DNA of 64,000 nucleotides, taken from positions 4,613-68,612 of the forward strand of contig CAXXVQ010000010.1 of NCBI GenBank assembly GCA_963662245.2, in the 5' to 3' direction. The translations under genes and the position numbers were made by a program. Shown here one piece after another: positions 5,942 to 46,502 of the stretch; the stretch's first letter is position 1, and each line of letters opens with the position of its first letter. The notes below the pieces were generated by a model that did not search any database, was not told where the DNA came from, and was given only the letters and a program-made list of their open reading frames with translations. This DNA comes from Paludibacteraceae bacterium (GTDB taxonomy: Bacteria; Bacteroidota; Bacteroidia; Bacteroidales; Paludibacteraceae).

Positions 5942-7516
5942 TTATTCGTCTTTCGCTTTTTGAGTTTTAAAACGACGAGCATCAATATCATATTTCTTTA
6001 ATCTAATACCCATCATTCTCTCTGTTATACCCATTTTCTCAGCAGCTTTAGTAATATTACCTTTTGTGCTGATTAAGCTATCTTGAATAATTTGTTTCTC
6101 TAATTTACCAAGTATTGTTTCCAATGTGCCTTGAGCTGCTGAATTTGATGAAACTGCATTTTGTAGAGTAGGAGGTAAATCATGTGAACGGATTACCCCA
6201 TCTTGACTCAAAATACAAGCACGCTCCATACAGTTTTCAAGCTCACGAATATTACCGGGCCAGTGATACACCATAAGCATATCAATTGCTGATGCAGAAA
6301 TGCGTTTGATGTTTTTACCATGCTTTTCGTTGAACTTTTCTACAAAGTGATCAGCTAACGCCGGAATATCATTGATACGCTCACGAAGAGATGGTACAAA
6401 GATTGGGAAAACATTGATTCGATAATATAAATCCTCGCGAAAGTGATCTTCTTTAATTAAATCCTCTAAATTGCGATTTGTAGCACAAATAACTCGAACA
6501 TCAACCTTTACCGGAGTAGAACTACCTAGGCGTTCAATTTCTCGTTGTTGTAATACACGAAGAAGTTTTACCTGAACTGGTGCAGGCACATCTCCAACCT
6601 CATCTAAGAATATTGTCCCTCCATTAGCAGCTTCAAAACGACCAATGCGTTGCGATGCAGCACCCGTAAAGGCTCCTTTTTCGTGACCAAATAACTCGCT
6701 TTCAATCAAACTTTCTGGCAATGCTGCACAGTTTACTTTGATAAAAGGCTTACCTTTTCGTAGACTGTTAAAGTGAATAGCTTCAGCAACCAATTCTTTA
6801 CCAACACCACTTTCACCTCTAATAAGTACTGTAGCATCAGTAGGGCTTACGCTTTCAATCAATGAAAACACTTCTTGCATTTTGCTAGAGTTCCCCTTTA
6901 TATTTGACGGAACAATGCGCTCCTTAAGGTTATTTTTAAGTGCGCGGTTTTCTTCGCGTAGAGTTGCTAGTTCTTCAATATTTTCTTGAATACGACGAAC
7001 AGCACGACCAATCATTGACCCTATGATGTATAATAATCGTTCATCATTGGCAAAGTTTAAACTTTGACGATATGTTTTGTGTAAACTTACCGTTCCAAGT
7101 ACTTCATATTTATAACGAATAGGAACACATATAAATGACACATCTTCTTTATCAATTTTTAGAGGTGCATTCGTTTTGTTTTTAAATCCAGGTGAAGCAG
7201 ATGTCTTGGGAACAACAACAGCTTCTCTAGTTTCAACAACGCGACCGATTATACCTTCACCTAACTTATAAGTAATATTCTTAATATCATCAAGATCAAT
7301 TCCATAAGTAGCTTCAAAATGAATAGTATCATTAGAACGATTGTGTGTAGTAAGTAGGATTCGTTCTGCGCCTAAGTGTTTACCCACCAAGTCCATAACC
7401 AATTGCAGGTTAATGTTTTTTTCAAATAGTGCATTACTGATTTCTAGTAACAGGTTTAATTCCCGCTTTCCGTAACAATCAGAATAAGCATCGCAATGTC
7501 CTGTTTGTAAACTCAT
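5942..7516 (-). CDS. sigma-54-dependent transcriptional activator, GAF-AAA+-Fis HTH (NifA-like)
   Basis: GESGVGKE Walker [16 protein letters not shown] (GAFTGA) motif, C-terminal Fis-type HTH, N-terminal GAF-sized domain, and a C-x4-C (NCMERAC) near the end of the AAA+ domain. It neighbours Mo and nif genes. Confidence 0.75.
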
Positions 7517-7885: not shown

Positions 7886-8401
7886 ATGACAAATTTTGGA
7901 AATAACACAATAAGCTTTGAACCGATTGGTGTCATCCATACAGAGTTTAAAGAGGTAGAAGATATTCCAATTCATCCATTTAGTGGAAAGGAAGCAAAAG
8001 GATACATTGAACTTTTACCAAAATTCGAAGCGGCATTAAAAGACTTAGAAGGCTTTACTCATATTACATTAATATATTATCTACACAAAGCTGAGGAATA
8101 TGAGTTGGAAGTAACACCTTATATAGATACTGAGCCTCATGGAGTTTTTGCAACGAGAGTAGCTGCAAGACCAAATCCAATAGGTTTATCTACCGTTCGA
8201 CTTGAGAATATTAAAGGTAATATTATTAATATCACAGAGCTCGACATCATGGATGGTACACCTCTATTAGATATTAAACCTTACTATAAGTTATTTGACA
8301 ACCGAATGACAGCGGTATCCGGATGGCTTGAAAATATTAAAGATCTTTCAAAAGCTAAAGCACCGGTTATTAAGAAAAGAAAACCTACTACCGAAGATTG
8401 A
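7886..8401 (+). CDS. TsaA/TrmO (YaeB)-family SAM-dependent methyltransferase-like protein
   Basis: PIGVIHTEF..., GFTHITLIYYLH, GVFATRVAARPNPIGLS and GTPLLDIKPY are the characteristic family blocks. Confidence 0.7.
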   Translation: MTNFGNNTISFEPIGVIHTEFKEVEDIPIHPFSGKEAKGYIELLPKFEAALKDLEGFTHITLIYYLHKAEEYELEVTPYIDTEPHGVFATRVAARPNPIGLSTVRLENIKGNIINITELDIMDGTPLLDIKPYYKLFDNRMTAVSGWLENIKDLSKAKAPVIKKRKPTTED

Positions 8402-39389: not shown

Positions 39390-39493
39390 TGTTTTGCTTA
39401 AAAATGCTCGTTGCTAAAGCTTTGGTGCGAACCTCACGAGCCGTGTTGCTATTATTTCTGATTGACATACTTGCTATGTGCAGTTTCGAGAAA

Positions 39494-39540
39494 TTGTCCC
39501 TATGGGCGGAATCGAACCGCCCACTTTGAACCGTTTAGGG
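39494..39540 (-). ncRNA. tRNA-like acceptor/T-arm minihelix
   Basis: Minus strand reads CCCTAAA-CGGTTCAAAGT-GGCGG-TTCGATT-CCGCC-CATAGGG-A-CAA. It has a T-loop consensus and 5 acceptor base pairs, and begins 2 nt after the stop at 39543. Confidence 0.4.
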
Positions 39541-39542
39541 TG

Positions 39543-40004
39543 TTAGTTTTCAACAGGTGCGACACCTTCTAGTGGCACATAGTTGTAAACATCTAGGATG
39601 TTTGTTTCTGTAAGTGTTGCCACTTCATAGTCGGCCATTGTGGTTTTTAAGCCTTTAAGTAAGTTATCTAAACCTGTTTTAAAGTCTTCAGCTTTTACCC
39701 ACATGTTGCTAGGCACTTTCTTTTCTACGCCTTTTTCTTCGTCGAGGCTCACGAATAGAACCTTGGCTCGATACCATTTGTCGGCATTAGCGTCTTCACT
39801 GTCGAACATCTCTGCGATGCGAACTCGTTTAACTCTCGAAATCAAGAAGTCGCCATTGATGAAAGGCTTCATTTCTTGCGTAATGCGAGCCTCGGCTTCG
39901 GTAAATGACATAGCATCCACCAAATAGGCCTCACTTGTGGTGATGATAATACCATCATCGCCTGTTTTGTCATACTTAATATGACATTCGAACCAACTGA
40001 ACAT
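39543..40004 (-). CDS. DUF4494-family protein
   Basis: WFECHIKYDKT..., YLVDAMSFTEAEARITQEM, ADKWYRAKV and TMADYEVATLTETNILDVY match the Bacteroidota DUF4494 pattern as I recall it. Confidence 0.55.
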   Translation of the reverse strand: MFSWFECHIKYDKTGDDGIIITTSEAYLVDAMSFTEAEARITQEMKPFINGDFLISRVKRVRIAEMFDSEDANADKWYRAKVLFVSLDEEKGVEKKVPSNMWVKAEDFKTGLDNLLKGLKTTMADYEVATLTETNILDVYNYVPLEGVAPVEN

Positions 40005-40048
40005 AAGCTTTTGTTTTAAGTGTTTATTAATAAAGAAAATACAATCTT

Positions 40049-40094
40049 TTGCTCCTAAGAGGGGAATCGAACCCCTCTAAAAAACCGTTTAGGA
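40049..40094 (-). ncRNA. tRNA-like acceptor/T-arm minihelix
   Basis: Minus strand reads TCCTAAA-CGGTTTTTTAG-AGGGG-TTCGATT-CCCCT-CTTAGGA-G-CAA. It begins immediately after the stop at 40095. Confidence 0.4.
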
Positions 40095-40757
40095 TTAGGC
40101 GTTTGACATGCTAAGGTTAATCCAAACATCTTTGCCATCGACTTTCATTTTGGCTTTGATGAAAGTGCTTGTTTTTTCGGGTCTGTAAGCCTCTTTGATA
40201 AGTCCAACGGCTTCCATCAGCTCAGTGTCTCCCGATTGTTCGGCTTGATTGTGAAGCTCTAGAACTCGCTGTGCTTTTGGCATACCTTCTTTGTTTGGTT
40301 TAAGCAAGTCTCGCACGATATTGGCCATCAACTGATTTTCGGGTGTGATTTGTTTCAGTATCCAATTGTTTACTTTTGCCACTCCCGAGGCTGCTAAGTC
40401 TTTGTCCCAACCGTCTACAATATTATGCCCGATGATGATTGTTTTTGAGTAGTCTAGGTTGCTTATTGAGTGGCTTTGTTGTGATTCAAATTCGTCATCT
40501 GATATTCCATAGACTTGCTTTTTAATCTCCATCAAATCCTTCGAGCCATTGTATAAGTTGGATTTGATAAGGCCTAAAATTCGTTCGGTACTCAATAATC
40601 GAGGGAAGTTCTTAGCGATGAACTCATCCTGTAGTGTGCGATAAGTCTTTTTGTCCTCTTGTTTCTTCTGTTTTTCTTGCTTTTCTTCAGCTGCAAGTTT
40701 TGATTTTAGCTCTGCTTTCTCTTTTGCAGATAACTTTGAATAATCGAAATTTTCCAT
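40095..40757 (-). CDS. DUF3164-family protein (Mu-like phage early protein)
   Basis: The C-terminal pattern LLKPNKEGMPKAQRVLELHN...EAVGLIKEAYRPEKTSTFIKAKMK resembles DUF3164 of Mu-like phages. It lies downstream of the B-like gene. Confidence 0.5.
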   Translation of the reverse strand: MENFDYSKLSAKEKAELKSKLAAEEKQEKQKKQEDKKTYRTLQDEFIAKNFPRLLSTERILGLIKSNLYNGSKDLMEIKKQVYGISDDEFESQQSHSISNLDYSKTIIIGHNIVDGWDKDLAASGVAKVNNWILKQITPENQLMANIVRDLLKPNKEGMPKAQRVLELHNQAEQSGDTELMEAVGLIKEAYRPEKTSTFIKAKMKVDGKDVWINLSMSNA

Positions 40758-42585: not shown

Positions 42586-44559
42586 TTAATATTGATTTCG
42601 TATGTTAACCTTAATGTTTTCACCCTCGTCGTCCCATTCGCTGTGAAGGAATGCTGTTTCGCTGGCTTCGTATTGTTTTTTAGGAACTCTACCAGTTAGC
42701 AGTATGCCAGTTTCTTGGCTTATTTCTTCGGGTTCTGCCTCCGCTTGCATTATCTCTGCTAGGCGTTTTTTGCGATGATTGTCCATTTTTTCGCCTATGG
42801 ATTTCATTTTGCCTACGGCTCTCATGTCTTTTTTCGGACCATATTGTTGAGCCTCGATAATTCGACTAAATGTGCCCAGGTACTTTGCGCCATCATAGAG
42901 ATGTACTTTGTCTAAATCTTCTATATCAAAGCAGTTCCAAAGCTTTATTCCTGTGTATTTTTCGGCTATATCACAATCGTCTATGCCATAATAGTAAATA
43001 GCATTGTCTATTTGTGTTTGAATCATGTAGTTTCGTATTGAAACCTCTTTTCTAAGCCCAAATAGATACGCCCATTGATGGCCATTAATAGCTTTTGTGT
43101 TGGGCTTGGTGCAATCGAAATGCAGTTGCATTGGCGATTTGTCTATGAGTCGGTACTTGGTACTCCAATCGCAATAAGGTGTGCGTATGTAGTTGTCTAG
43201 TATCTTATCTGTTTCACGAATGGCATCGTCGAAGTTGAAGCCGTTTTTTGCTGCCCATTGGCGCATCTTAATCACATACTCTTTTGCTCTATGAGCGTAC
43301 TTGCGTGATGATTTTACACCCTCACCATAGTACAAATCGCTTTCTGCCATAAACACGGTTTGGAGTGTGCCCCACCAACGCTCTATGCGCCCTTTACCCT
43401 CGGGCTTAACGGTTTGTGTCATGGTTACACCCTCGTGTCTAAGTGTACTTTCGAGCCACATCCAGTCTGAAGTGTTGTGACCAGGAAAGCGGTCATATCT
43501 TAGTTCGTAAGGAAGATATCCAGTGTTTCTAACGGCCATTGCAATGGCGTTCATTACAGCATCGGCACTTTCTTCATAGCAATATTCCCAACCAAGTGGC
43601 AAACCGCTCATTACATCACGCACAGCGATAATGTAAAGGAACTTTTGAGAGGTAACACGCTTGCCTTCTTTGTTTAATACAGTGGCACGGTGGTCTATGA
43701 TATTGACACGAGTACCATCTATGTCCCAACAATCGCCAGCATAAAGAGCCGCAGCGGTTGGCGTATAGCTTCTGTATTTGTTATTGAAACGGCTGCGCTC
43801 TCCGTAGCGTTGTTGTATTAAGAATTGTGTTTCAGGTTTCGCCATAAAGTCGCTAACCCAGCGTTGCGATGGTATTTTGTCTAATCCGTGTTGTAGGCAG
43901 GTTGTGCGCAACTTGCGATATATGAATGAAGCTGTATAATTGCGTTGGCTATGACCTAGGTCGAATAGCCAGTTCAGCATCATGTCGTTGTTTGTGAATA
44001 GTGAGCGGTTTTCGTTTCCTTTGTTTTTAGCATACACCAATTCGTTTATCGGTGTGCCATCTGCATAGGCTTTAATCTTATCTCTAAGGTTTCTCCAGCT
44101 TACAGGCAGGTACTTTAAACCTTGTAGATCGATTTCCTTGCCCAGCTCATCAAAGAATTGGCTTTTGCTGTATGAAATGCCGTTGTTTTGAATGTAAACA
44201 AAGGCTTCGTGCACAACTGCAGCTGCTTTGGCTTCATCTTCATTCATGCCCTTTAAAAATGCTTTAAAGCCTCTGTAAATTGCATTTGCCACGATGTCAA
44301 CAATATAATTTCGTACTTCAACGGCACGCAATTGAAGTGTGCCTGGCTCGTCTAGCTTTACCGTAGTGGAACTAGGTAAGCTTGAGTAGCTGAAGTAACA
44401 GCGATTGGCAATAATCTCGTGCTTCCACGATTCTCCGCCTTTCTTAGCTCTCGATTTTGCTACTCTCAGATAGTCGGCCTTTACAGCCTCCTTTTTTATG
44501 AGGTAGTCTTGTGAAAGCCACAAGCTGTTGTTGTATAGTATAATATCGTTGTTTGTCAT
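42586..44559 (-). CDS. MuA-like DDE transposase
   Basis: 657 aa. Candidate D, D, E residues lie in the CWDIDGT, RYDRFPGHNTSDW and GKGRIERWW contexts (retroviral-integrase-like core). It is paired with the B-like ATPase. Confidence 0.85.
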   Translation of the reverse strand: MTNNDIILYNNSLWLSQDYLIKKEAVKADYLRVAKSRAKKGGESWKHEIIANRCYFSYSSLPSSTTVKLDEPGTLQLRAVEVRNYIVDIVANAIYRGFKAFLKGMNEDEAKAAAVVHEAFVYIQNNGISYSKSQFFDELGKEIDLQGLKYLPVSWRNLRDKIKAYADGTPINELVYAKNKGNENRSLFTNNDMMLNWLFDLGHSQRNYTASFIYRKLRTTCLQHGLDKIPSQRWVSDFMAKPETQFLIQQRYGERSRFNNKYRSYTPTAAALYAGDCWDIDGTRVNIIDHRATVLNKEGKRVTSQKFLYIIAVRDVMSGLPLGWEYCYEESADAVMNAIAMAVRNTGYLPYELRYDRFPGHNTSDWMWLESTLRHEGVTMTQTVKPEGKGRIERWWGTLQTVFMAESDLYYGEGVKSSRKYAHRAKEYVIKMRQWAAKNGFNFDDAIRETDKILDNYIRTPYCDWSTKYRLIDKSPMQLHFDCTKPNTKAINGHQWAYLFGLRKEVSIRNYMIQTQIDNAIYYYGIDDCDIAEKYTGIKLWNCFDIEDLDKVHLYDGAKYLGTFSRIIEAQQYGPKKDMRAVGKMKSIGEKMDNHRKKRLAEIMQAEAEPEEISQETGILLTGRVPKKQYEASETAFLHSEWDDEGENIKVNIRNQY

Positions 44560-44571
44560 TGAGTTGTGTGT

Positions 44572-44664
44572 TGGTGGTCGGTGGGAGAATCGAACTCCCT
44601 CTTAGGGTGGTAGAAATTGCTGCCTGAGTCAACAATACCTTGTGCGCCTTTACACTACCCGACC
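44572..44664 (-). ncRNA. 93-nt tRNA-like RNA with encoded CCA (non-canonical middle)
   Basis: Minus strand reads GGTCGGG...GGGAG-TTCGATT-CTCCC-ACCGACC-A-CCA. It has a 4-bp D-like stem and a central 6-bp helix with the 7-nt loop ACTCAGG. Confidence 0.45.
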
Positions 44665-44671
44665 TGCAATT

Positions 44672-44809
44672 TTACTTGCTGCTGTTTTCTTTAAATGCGT
44701 CTTTCCAATCCTGCCATGTGTAGTCTTTTACCAAGCTCCAGCACATAGCCCCACAACCGAGGGCAAAAAGTGCTACGATGGCGTAATAGATAAAGTCGTC
44801 TGCACTCAT
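44672..44809 (-). CDS. 45-aa single-TM micro-protein (below the ORF-track cutoff)
   Basis: Its ATG overlaps the upstream TGA (ATGA). Sequence: MSADDFIYYAIVALFALGCGAMCWSLVKDYTWQDWKDAFKENSSK. Confidence 0.4.
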   Translation of the reverse strand: MSADDFIYYAIVALFALGCGAMCWSLVKDYTWQDWKDAFKENSSK

Positions 44810-46453: not shown

Positions 46454-46470
46454 GTTGGTATCCTAAAAGA

Positions 46471-46502
46471 AAAAGCCAGACATGAGAGTGTCTGGCTTTT
46501 TT
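46471..46502 (+). terminator. intrinsic terminator of the repressor operon
   Basis: AAAAGCCAGACA / TGTCTGGCTTTT stem with a 6-nt loop and a T-run. Confidence 0.75.

Follow-up and report, generated by a model that had tools for sequence, protein, structure and literature searches.

A long tRNA-like element upstream of a Mu-type transposase gene and a family of mini tRNA-like elements as candidate punctuation of phage operons

In a 64,000-nucleotide (nt) stretch of a Paludibacteraceae genome (contig CAXXVQ010000010.1, positions 4,613 to 68,612; hereafter the window), a 93-nt tRNA-like element lies on the minus strand at window positions 44572 to 44664, just upstream of the Mu-type transposase gene of a prophage. 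It was found that the upper half of this element is tRNA-like, while its anticodon domain is not. In related phages, the slot before the transposase gene is occupied by a genuine tRNA-Asn or by a mini tRNA-like element of about 45 nt. As far as the comparison of these loci can tell, a genuine tRNA, a mini mimic, and a long mimic are interchangeable at one position. The explanation that I favor, with a confidence only a little above even, is that the 93-nt element imitates the upper half of a tRNA and would act in cis, drawing RNase P and/or RNase Z to the early polycistronic transcript so that it is divided into segments.

Read from 44664 to 44572, the element starts with the acceptor strand GGUCGGG (44664-44658), which forms six pairs and a G7·A66 mismatch with ACCGACC (44582-44576). 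It continues with U8 and A9, the D arm GUGU-AAAGGC-GCAC (44655-44642), an A residue, a stretch of 41 nt, and the T arm GGGAG-UUCGAUU-CUCCC (44599-44583). It ends, after the acceptor 3′ strand, with the discriminator A73 (44575) and an encoded CCA (44574-44572). The residues kept from tRNA are U8, A14, G18G19, the T loop, G53-C61, an RGA sequence 5′ of the T stem, and 6 of the 7 acceptor pairs. Thus, the acceptor, discriminator, CCA, D arm, and T arm of a canonical tRNA are all present, whereas an anticodon arm with a 5-bp stem, a 7-nt loop, U33, and a purine at position 37 is not, and default detectors do not recognize the element. The stop codon of a 45-aa open reading frame (ORF; 44672-44809, minus strand) lies 7 nt before the element, and the transposase ATG (44559) lies 16 nt past the last acceptor base and 12 nt past the end of the element. 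An earlier note, made from the letters of this DNA alone, had given the same sequence, coordinates, and gaps as well as the T arm, the 6-bp acceptor with its G-A mismatch, the discriminator A, the CCA, and the GG in the D loop, and re-reading found each of them correct.

RNAfold predicted a cloverleaf of −30.5 kcal/mol (z = −2.6), and 1 of 200 shuffled sequences was equally stable. The scan with structural models proposed in the earlier note gave a divided answer. On the one hand, ARAGORN with default settings called no tRNA or transfer-messenger RNA (tmRNA) gene in the whole window, and Rfam gave nothing for the element at the gathering threshold and nothing tRNA-like at E ≤ 10 in a 451-nt slice. 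On the other hand, ARAGORN with lowered thresholds returned exactly the 93 nt, but with contradictory anticodons. A lax pattern consisting of a T arm, at least 6 of 7 acceptor pairs, and a GG-containing D arm occurred 14 times in 200 dinucleotide-shuffled windows (about 0.07 per window), so the fold by itself is only moderately improbable and not conclusive. The element is judged to be real because its D arm is common to 13 other elements and because tRNA or tRNA-like units are found in the homologous slot. It is not a tmRNA: position 3:70 is U-A rather than G3·U70, and no tmRNA was called by ARAGORN in the window. Nor does it resemble the 3′ tRNA-like structures of plant viruses, since it is internal in the operon of a DNA prophage, has an ordinary helical acceptor, and has no match to such a structure in Rfam.

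What occupies this slot in other phages? Related loci were gathered from IMG/VR, GTDB genomes, and assemblies. The slot, 14-24 nt 5′ of the transposase ATG, holds a mini element of about 45 nt in most relatives, a tRNA-Asn in some, and the long form in the window. The closest relative (L034), whose transposase is 91% identical, has a canonical tRNA-Asn(GUU) there, which both RF00005 (75 bits) and ARAGORN recognize. This tRNA ends about 13 nt before the ATG and has no encoded CCA. Relatives with 55-70% transposase identity have a mini element in the slot. In a very distant transposase lineage, barely alignable with that of the window, the exchange is seen again independently: one locus (L057) has this tRNA-Asn at 12 nt from the ATG, and three others (L045, L048, and L050) have a mini element. 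A tRNA-shaped unit occupies the slot in nearly all relatives; the gene content upstream of it varies even among close relatives, while the transposase gene is conserved. Since a tRNA in the slot must be excised from the transcript, processing there is unavoidable in the phages with tRNA-Asn. In a count apart from the slot, tRNA-Asn(GUU) was found in the early regions of three Mu-like lineages (L034 2914-2988; L057 7252-7326, minus strand; L002 1522-1595), two of which have it directly 5′ of the transposase ATG.

The D arm led to a class of long elements. IMG/VR was searched with the 14-nt D arm GUGUAAAGGCGCAC, and at least 26 of the returned loci have a T arm downstream; they collapse to 13 distinct elements besides that of the window (14 in total), a set selected on the D arm and the T arm only. 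The window element has the identical D arm preceded by U-R, a non-canonical center, and a canonical T arm, as the others have. Their acceptor stems have 6 or 7 of 7 pairs, and 94.9% of the cells are paired as against 38-60% in slid controls, with the acceptor register shifted by one position for the best fit in 5 sequences. The acceptors fall into about 10 unrelated sequence families, with compensatory changes at all 7 pairs. Thus, of the covariation that the earlier note had proposed to look for, the acceptor and T stems of the class give a positive case; for the central domain of the window element, no homologue was found. The centers of the class are 15-59 nt long, and RGA precedes the T stem in 9 of the 14. 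For close homologues that share one genomic context, upstream of a head-tail connector gene, ARAGORN gives Glu(CUC), a 4-nt CUCU, and Gly(CCC), so the anticodon is unconstrained. The next ORF starts 16 nt downstream in the window, 21-23 nt downstream in L066, L071, L073, L149, and L164, and 13 nt downstream in L178; the remaining members are in tRNA-like tandems or have no nearby ORF. Several of those close to an ORF come from phage modules that are otherwise unrelated, for example terminase to MazG-like and capsid to connector. The CCA is encoded in the window element and in no other member.

As for ancestry, the D arm of the window element has U11-A24 and U13·G22, which are typical of tRNA-Glu and tRNA-Gln D arms, and the D arm of one phage tRNA-Gln is nearly identical. 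Furthermore, a tRNA-Glu(CUC) in a metagenomic array of 13 tRNAs (L061 35-106) has the same acceptor type (GGUCGGU/ACCGACC) and shares the whole T arm with the window element, which hints at where the latter came from. Judging from these resemblances, the 93-nt element is best seen as a derivative of a tRNA-Glx that kept the upper half and the core and lost decoding. The related Mu-like loci L007, L040, L047, and L002 have other long forms with intact upper halves and insertions of 25-85 nt. Some elements with the same D arm stand in tandem with a second aberrant tRNA-like element (L069 3105-3193, L111, L115 253-351, L142 8129-8214, and L181). The second element starts with GGUGGCGGAAUUGGUAGACGC and is of the same type as those at L047 2692-2832 and L002 ~1690-1815.

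The mini elements form a family of their own. The consensus of about 45 nt is YCCUR-AACGGUU(N3-6), a 6-8-bp stem capped by UUCGAUU, and YAGGR-R-C-A. A MAFFT alignment of 38 distinct copies was made without fitting to any structure. In this alignment, 94.4% of the helix cells are paired, compared with 75.5% in column shuffles and 39-59% in slid controls, and 70 cells have changes on both sides where 20 were expected. The UUCGAUU T loop, the GG in the 5′ bulge, and C74 after R73 are invariant. The split between the acceptor-like helix and the T helix varies (4/8, 5/7, or 6/6), and their sum is 12 bp in 18 copies, 11 bp in 13, and 10 bp in 6. This sum of 10-12 bp is the "12-bp" ruler of tRNA. The helices contain G·U pairs and every copy is on the strand of the genes, so the structure acts as RNA. 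Relative to the last base of the upstream stop codon, the core begins between −8 and +10 nt (median, +1), and the next ATG lies 14-24 nt past the acceptor in 23 of 34 cases. Positions 4-6 of the element are always U-R-A (UAA or UGA), and in 10 of the 38 Bacteroidota copies they are the stop codon of the upstream ORF itself; examples of in-element stops are L035 2945-2947, L063 2945-2947, L064 2807-2809, and L186 1506-1508. Rfam gave only partial matches to the tmRNA T arm (E ~0.1) on loci with mini elements.

A covariance model built from the Bacteroidota copies (R1) revealed two mini elements in the window itself, both on the minus strand. The first, at 40046..40103 (65.8 bits), has the core UCCUA / AACGGUUUUUU / AGAGGGG-UUCGAUU-CCCCUCU / UAGGA-G-CA at 40094-40050, and it begins directly after the TAA (40097-40095) of a 220-aa early gene (40095..40757, minus strand; phrog_846). 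The second, at 39491..39549 (69.6 bits), has the core CCCUA / AACGGUUCAAAG / UGGGCGG-UUCGAUU-CCGCCCA / UAGGG-A-CA at 39540-39495, and it begins 2 nt after the TAA of a DUF4494 gene (39543..40004, minus strand; Pfam PF14902, E = 2.2e-51). The two mini elements thus bracket the DUF4494 gene. In relatives, the second conserved slot for mini elements comes after the phrog_846 gene. A specific partnership with DUF4494, which has no solved relative, was considered and dropped, since it is the phrog_846 gene, more often than DUF4494, that precedes this second slot.

Is the mini element limited to Bacteroidota? A blastn search of the consensus against GenBank phages matched unannotated intergenic DNA of mycobacteriophages. 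Mini elements lie in the gaps of Send513 (JF704112.1, ~38.5-44.7 kb; L185 and L187) and of Cuke (MG757156.1, ~30.0-31.2 kb; L186). In both phages, nearly every gap of ~80-100 nt in a run of small genes consists of a mini element, a second GC-rich hairpin, and a Shine-Dalgarno (SD) sequence, the last being GAGAGGAUGG about 40-50 nt downstream of the mini element. The bulge is AACGGUUUUCG or ACUGGCAGACA. The model R1, trained on Bacteroidota copies, scores the mycobacteriophage copies up to 59.6 bits, and Send513 has at least 11 co-oriented copies abutting gene ends. The UGA stop codon of Cuke gp35 is placed within the element (GCC-UGA-ACGGUU) as the UAA is in Bacteroidota copies. On these loci, too, Rfam gave only partial tmRNA T-arm matches and no family. 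A second type of bulge, ACUGGCAG(A/G)CA in place of AACGGUU and usually with a UUCGAGY loop, was seen in phages of both phyla (L014 430-500 and 1410-1480 in a Bacteroidales metagenome-assembled genome; the Send513 gaps 212-303, 562-655, and 2410-2504 of L185), so the phages of Bacteroidota and of actinobacteria have both subtypes in common.

How might such elements work? In the favored explanation, the mimic would consist of the acceptor stacked on the T arm and of the elbow formed by the D arm and the T loop, with an irregular hairpin in place of the anticodon arm. Mistaken for a pre-tRNA by the tRNA-maturation enzymes of the host, it would mark a cutting site in the mRNA. RNase P would cleave on the 5′ side of the acceptor stem and/or RNase Z, or some other pathway for 3′ ends, would cleave past the discriminator, possibly with CCA addition or repair afterwards. 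The transposase message would thereby be uncoupled from the upstream genes and begin with a short, defined leader. Farther along the operon, the two mini elements may act likewise around the DUF4494 gene. The determinants read by these enzymes are present: the 93-nt element has 7 + 5 positions, an intact elbow, and ACCA, and the mini elements have 10-12 bp and the invariant C74. RNase P is known to cut hairpins of acceptor, T stem, and T loop efficiently, and its RNA subunit pairs with the RCCA tail (PMC11143913). In vivo, RNase P also cleaves the tRNA-like domain of Mycobacterium smegmatis YrlA, and CCA is added to it (PMC4201824). No CCA is encoded in the few host tRNA genes of the fetched loci, so the hosts probably have an RNase Z and CCA-adding pathway. 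Among the ideas in the earlier note, a mimic for cleavage by RNase P or RNase Z is the one best supported by comparison, through the interchangeability in the slot; co-transcription, the cleavage itself, the identity of the enzyme, and the effect on expression are what I infer from it, and every functional statement in this text has the same comparative basis.

Several points weigh against this explanation, the first being that cleavage at the elements is purely inferred. Second, the 93-nt sequence is an orphan, and its central hairpin is a predicted fold for which no homologue was found. In a blastn search of the element against GenBank phages, only T arms were matched. The exact 22-mer of T arm and acceptor was absent in IMG/VR and was found in metagenomes only in an unrelated tRNA-Glu and in a coding region. 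A 17-mer of the D arm and the center matched only L180 and L188, the centers of which cannot be aligned with that of the window. Third, the 93-nt element matches R1 via its T arm alone (13.5 bits, E = 0.55); it is a different form, probably in the same role, and not a member of the mini family. Fourth, where the upstream stop codon lies inside the acceptor 5′ strand, as in the 10 mini elements mentioned above, an RNase P cut at +1 gives a non-stop mRNA, which is awkward unless processing is 3′-only or competes with translation. Fifth, the window element encodes CCA, which blocks RNase Z in some bacteria. Finally, TAAAATTG (44667-44674, minus strand) matches the Bacteroides −7 box TAnnTTTG at 7 of 8 positions and ends 3 nt before G1 of the element, and this weak box may give an independent transcript start there. 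Scans for E. coli-type promoters and terminators gave nothing informative around the element.

An unlikely alternative is that the 93-nt element is an inert relic, namely the decaying pseudogene of a phage tRNA of the tRNA-Glu/Gln type that once occupied a mosaic slot, and that it has no present function. The earlier note had raised a decayed tRNA, and as to descent this was right: the D arm is of the tRNA-Glu/Gln type and the acceptor and T arm are like those of tRNA-Glu. The orphan status of the sequence, the differing cargo of the slot in close relatives, the near identity of acceptor and T arm to the tRNA-Glu(CUC) of the metagenomic array, and the G·A mismatch in the acceptor would all be expected of a relic. 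However, the decay is restricted to the anticodon domain, and the upper half is intact and selectively kept. The same pattern is seen in the 13 other elements with the same D arm, the acceptors of which have undergone compensatory changes, and a tRNA-shaped unit is present in the slot of nearly all relatives.

It is likewise improbable that the mimics act in trans, as decoys or small RNAs. Once released, they could sequester or divert a host factor with affinity for the tRNA elbow or acceptor (candidates are a nuclease of a defence system, a toxin that attacks the 3′ ends of tRNAs, the CCA-adding enzyme, TruB/TrmA, or the ribosome), or they could be stable regulatory RNAs. A phage carries many copies (Send513 at least 11, this prophage 3), the elbow features are strictly conserved, and the tRNA-Asn in three lineages could be a counter-defence spare. 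Bacterial Y RNAs are a precedent for tRNA mimics acting in trans (PMC4201824). On the other side, a role in cis is indicated by how closely and uniformly the elements are placed between the stop codon of one gene and the start codon of the next, the elements have no anticodon loop as bait for anticodon nucleases, and no partner gene is consistently adjacent. Moreover, release needs the same processing, so a decoy would extend the cleavage explanation rather than replace it.

Translational coupling has a still smaller share of probability. The fold would lie immediately beyond the region that a 30S subunit covers at the next start codon, and it would hold or recruit ribosomes for re-initiation, replacing SD pairing, which Bacteroidota largely do without. 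The constant 14-24 nt to the ATG, the abutment on the upstream stop codon, and the A-rich leaders without SD after the Bacteroidota copies fit this. However, a second hairpin and an evident SD sequence come after the mycobacteriophage copies, which means that replacing SD pairing is not the general role.

Does the 93-nt element decode anything? The central domain (44600..44640, minus strand) was assessed with RNAfold and relaxed ARAGORN. The minimum free energy (MFE) fold consists of GGUA, the 6-bp helix UUGUUG/CAGCAA (44635-44630 with 44622-44617) capped by the loop ACUCAGG, a bulge, and UACC, followed by ACCCUAAGA. The loop sits on an interrupted helix of 10 bp and has C at position 33. The earlier note had described this helix, its loop with C33, and its extension by GGTA/TACC; all were re-found, with GGUA and UACC pairing beyond the bulge in the MFE fold. 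In an alternative fold, the 5-bp stem AAGGU/ACCCU takes up an extra hairpin of 21 nt at 31/32, and the loop is UUCUACC, with the anticodon CUA and C37. Relaxed ARAGORN read the element either as "Pyl(CUA)" with the 21-nt insertion at 31/32 or as "Thr(UGU)" with a giant variable loop. CCUAAACGGUU looks like the anticodon stem-loop of a tRNA-Arg(CCU) (L049), but this likeness was judged to be an artefact of the search.

The earlier note had also suggested a UGA-reading or suppressor-like tRNA. Suppressor tRNAs are known in other Bacteroidota phages, the acceptor, D, and T arms with the encoded CCA are complete, and there are 7-nt loops with a central UCA (for reading UGA) or, in the alternative fold, CUA (for reading UAG). 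Yet a decoding tRNA, whether suppressor or recoding, is not supported and I regard it as very improbable: one fold has C33 and the other has C37 and the 21-nt insertion, default ARAGORN rejects the element, Rfam has no tRNA or tRNA-Sec match even at E ≤ 10, and the anticodons of its class relatives vary. The arrangement is 7/5 rather than the 8/5 of a tRNA-Sec, and there is no paired variable arm. The stop codons of the prophage ORFs (TAA 21, TAG 9, TGA 3) are all ordinary, and the ORFs are full length compared with homologues under the standard code. Aminoacylation of the 93-nt element is unlikely.

Last, a DNA-level linker, either a homologous-recombination boundary for module exchange or a protein-binding site, would suit the mosaic junction that the element marks between differing upstream genes and a conserved transposase gene, and it is as improbable as decoding because the compensatory stem changes and G·U pairs are needless for an identity-based linker, the orientation is always that of the genes, and the conserved T loop and GG match tRNA tertiary structure.

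A wider proposal can be made, to which I give somewhat less than even credence. Phages of at least two phyla (Mu-like phages of Bacteroidota and actinobacteriophages) may punctuate their operons with anticodon-less mini-tRNA mimics and thereby hijack RNase P and/or RNase Z. Some genuine tRNAs, such as tRNA-Asn, might double as marks, and the 93-nt element would be an intermediate, derived from a gene of the tRNA-Glu type after its anticodon arm had escaped the constraint of decoding. In mitochondria, tRNAs between ORFs are excised by RNase P and RNase Z, which is known as tRNA punctuation. The phage elements are similar in that tRNA-shaped units, sometimes real tRNAs, lie directly between coding regions of one polycistronic transcript with very short spacers. 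They differ in that most are dedicated mimics that lack an anticodon arm (45 nt) or have a degenerate one, that they belong to DNA phages of bacteria, and that their cleavage is a proposal. The tRNA-like RNAs of MALAT1 (mascRNA), MEN-beta, and MHV68 (TMER) have only one known job, the definition of RNA ends by bringing in RNase P and/or RNase Z and CCA addition. These are also non-decoding mimics embedded in a longer transcript. In contrast to the phage elements, they are eukaryotic nuclear or herpesviral and are single copies at a transcript end, and there is no sequence relationship.

Bacterial parallels are closer in structure. Like the minimal substrates of RNase P (PMC11143913), the mini elements have a coaxial helix of about 12 bp, a T-loop cap, and an R73-C74 tail. 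Unlike them, they have a GG-containing 5′ bulge, which is probably a D-loop mimic, and the phage elements end with R-C-A/N rather than RCCA, the long form of the window being the exception. With tmRNA and YrlA (PMC4201824), they share an acceptor-like helix, a T arm, and D-loop mimicry without an anticodon, and YrlA-like RNAs are also found in phages (PMC4201824). However, the phage elements have neither the tag ORF and pseudoknots of tmRNA nor the Ro-binding helix and Ro60 neighbor of YrlA. Among the scanned neighbors in the window (transposase, AAA ATPase, an anti-repressor-like protein, and DUF4494) there is no Ro60, and no Y-RNA-type match was found in Rfam. The Rfam models of tmRNA and YrlA match the phage elements no further than the T arm, and both RNAs are stand-alone genes, whereas the phage elements are intergenic in operons. 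Host tRNA enzymes also cut polycistronic or phage transcripts, as in tRNA-mRNA co-transcripts of bacteria and phages and in operon mRNAs cleaved by RNase P (the tufB operon, the his, tna, and rbs operons, the C4 RNA of P1/P7, and phage M3 RNA; partly in PMC11143913). These cases involve genuine tRNAs or idiosyncratic structures, while the phage elements are a conserved and repeated family without an anticodon. They belong to no Rfam family, and a full-text literature search, which did not cover subscription journals, found no description of them. One paper mentions unspecified tRNA-like candidates in IMG/VR, without sequences to compare (PMC10690425). Thus, a tRNA mimic as a processing signal is already known from mitochondria, MALAT1, and a herpesvirus, and a conserved, repeated, anticodon-less family in phage operons appears to be new.

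If the elements are processing signals, early phage operons would be regulated post-transcriptionally by the tRNA-maturation machinery of the host, and a transposable phage would set the amount of transposase relative to the upstream regulators. It would also give phages a second reason, beyond codon supply, to carry tRNA genes, and would account for many "tRNA pseudogenes" and unannotated intergenic gaps of ~95 nt in phages. The elements are compact (45 nt), modular, and apparently working in two phyla, so they may serve as parts for multiplexed RNA processing in Bacteroides and mycobacteria. The hosts of Send513 and Cuke are cultivable M. smegmatis, in which the hypothesis is directly testable.

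Judged by its G+C content (~0.40 against 0.33 in the flanks), the prophage extends over ~13000-46500 of the window. The transposase gene (42586..44559, minus strand) encodes a 657-aa Mu-type DDE transposase, with a weak Pfam rve match, a match to the PHROG 310 transposase (E = 2.9e-35), and 322 homologues. A gene for a MuB-like AAA ATPase comes after it. There is no record of the exact transposase of the window, and tblastn against GenBank phages found no relative, so this lineage has no annotated reference phage. Another tRNA-like 3′ module, GGAGC...GGAC-GCGGGUUCGACUCCCGC-C.GCUCC-A-CAA, was seen in three of the related Mu-like loci (L002 ~6900-6960, L007 ~7890-7950, and L040 ~6925-6975). It lies about 4.7 kb past the transposase start, behind a hairpin and a tract rich in T, and resembles the 3′ end of tmRNA, with no ARAGORN call. 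At the early-region edge of the prophage in the window, a terminator-like hairpin of 15 bp (46469-46502, plus strand) follows a divergent ORF of 133 aa.

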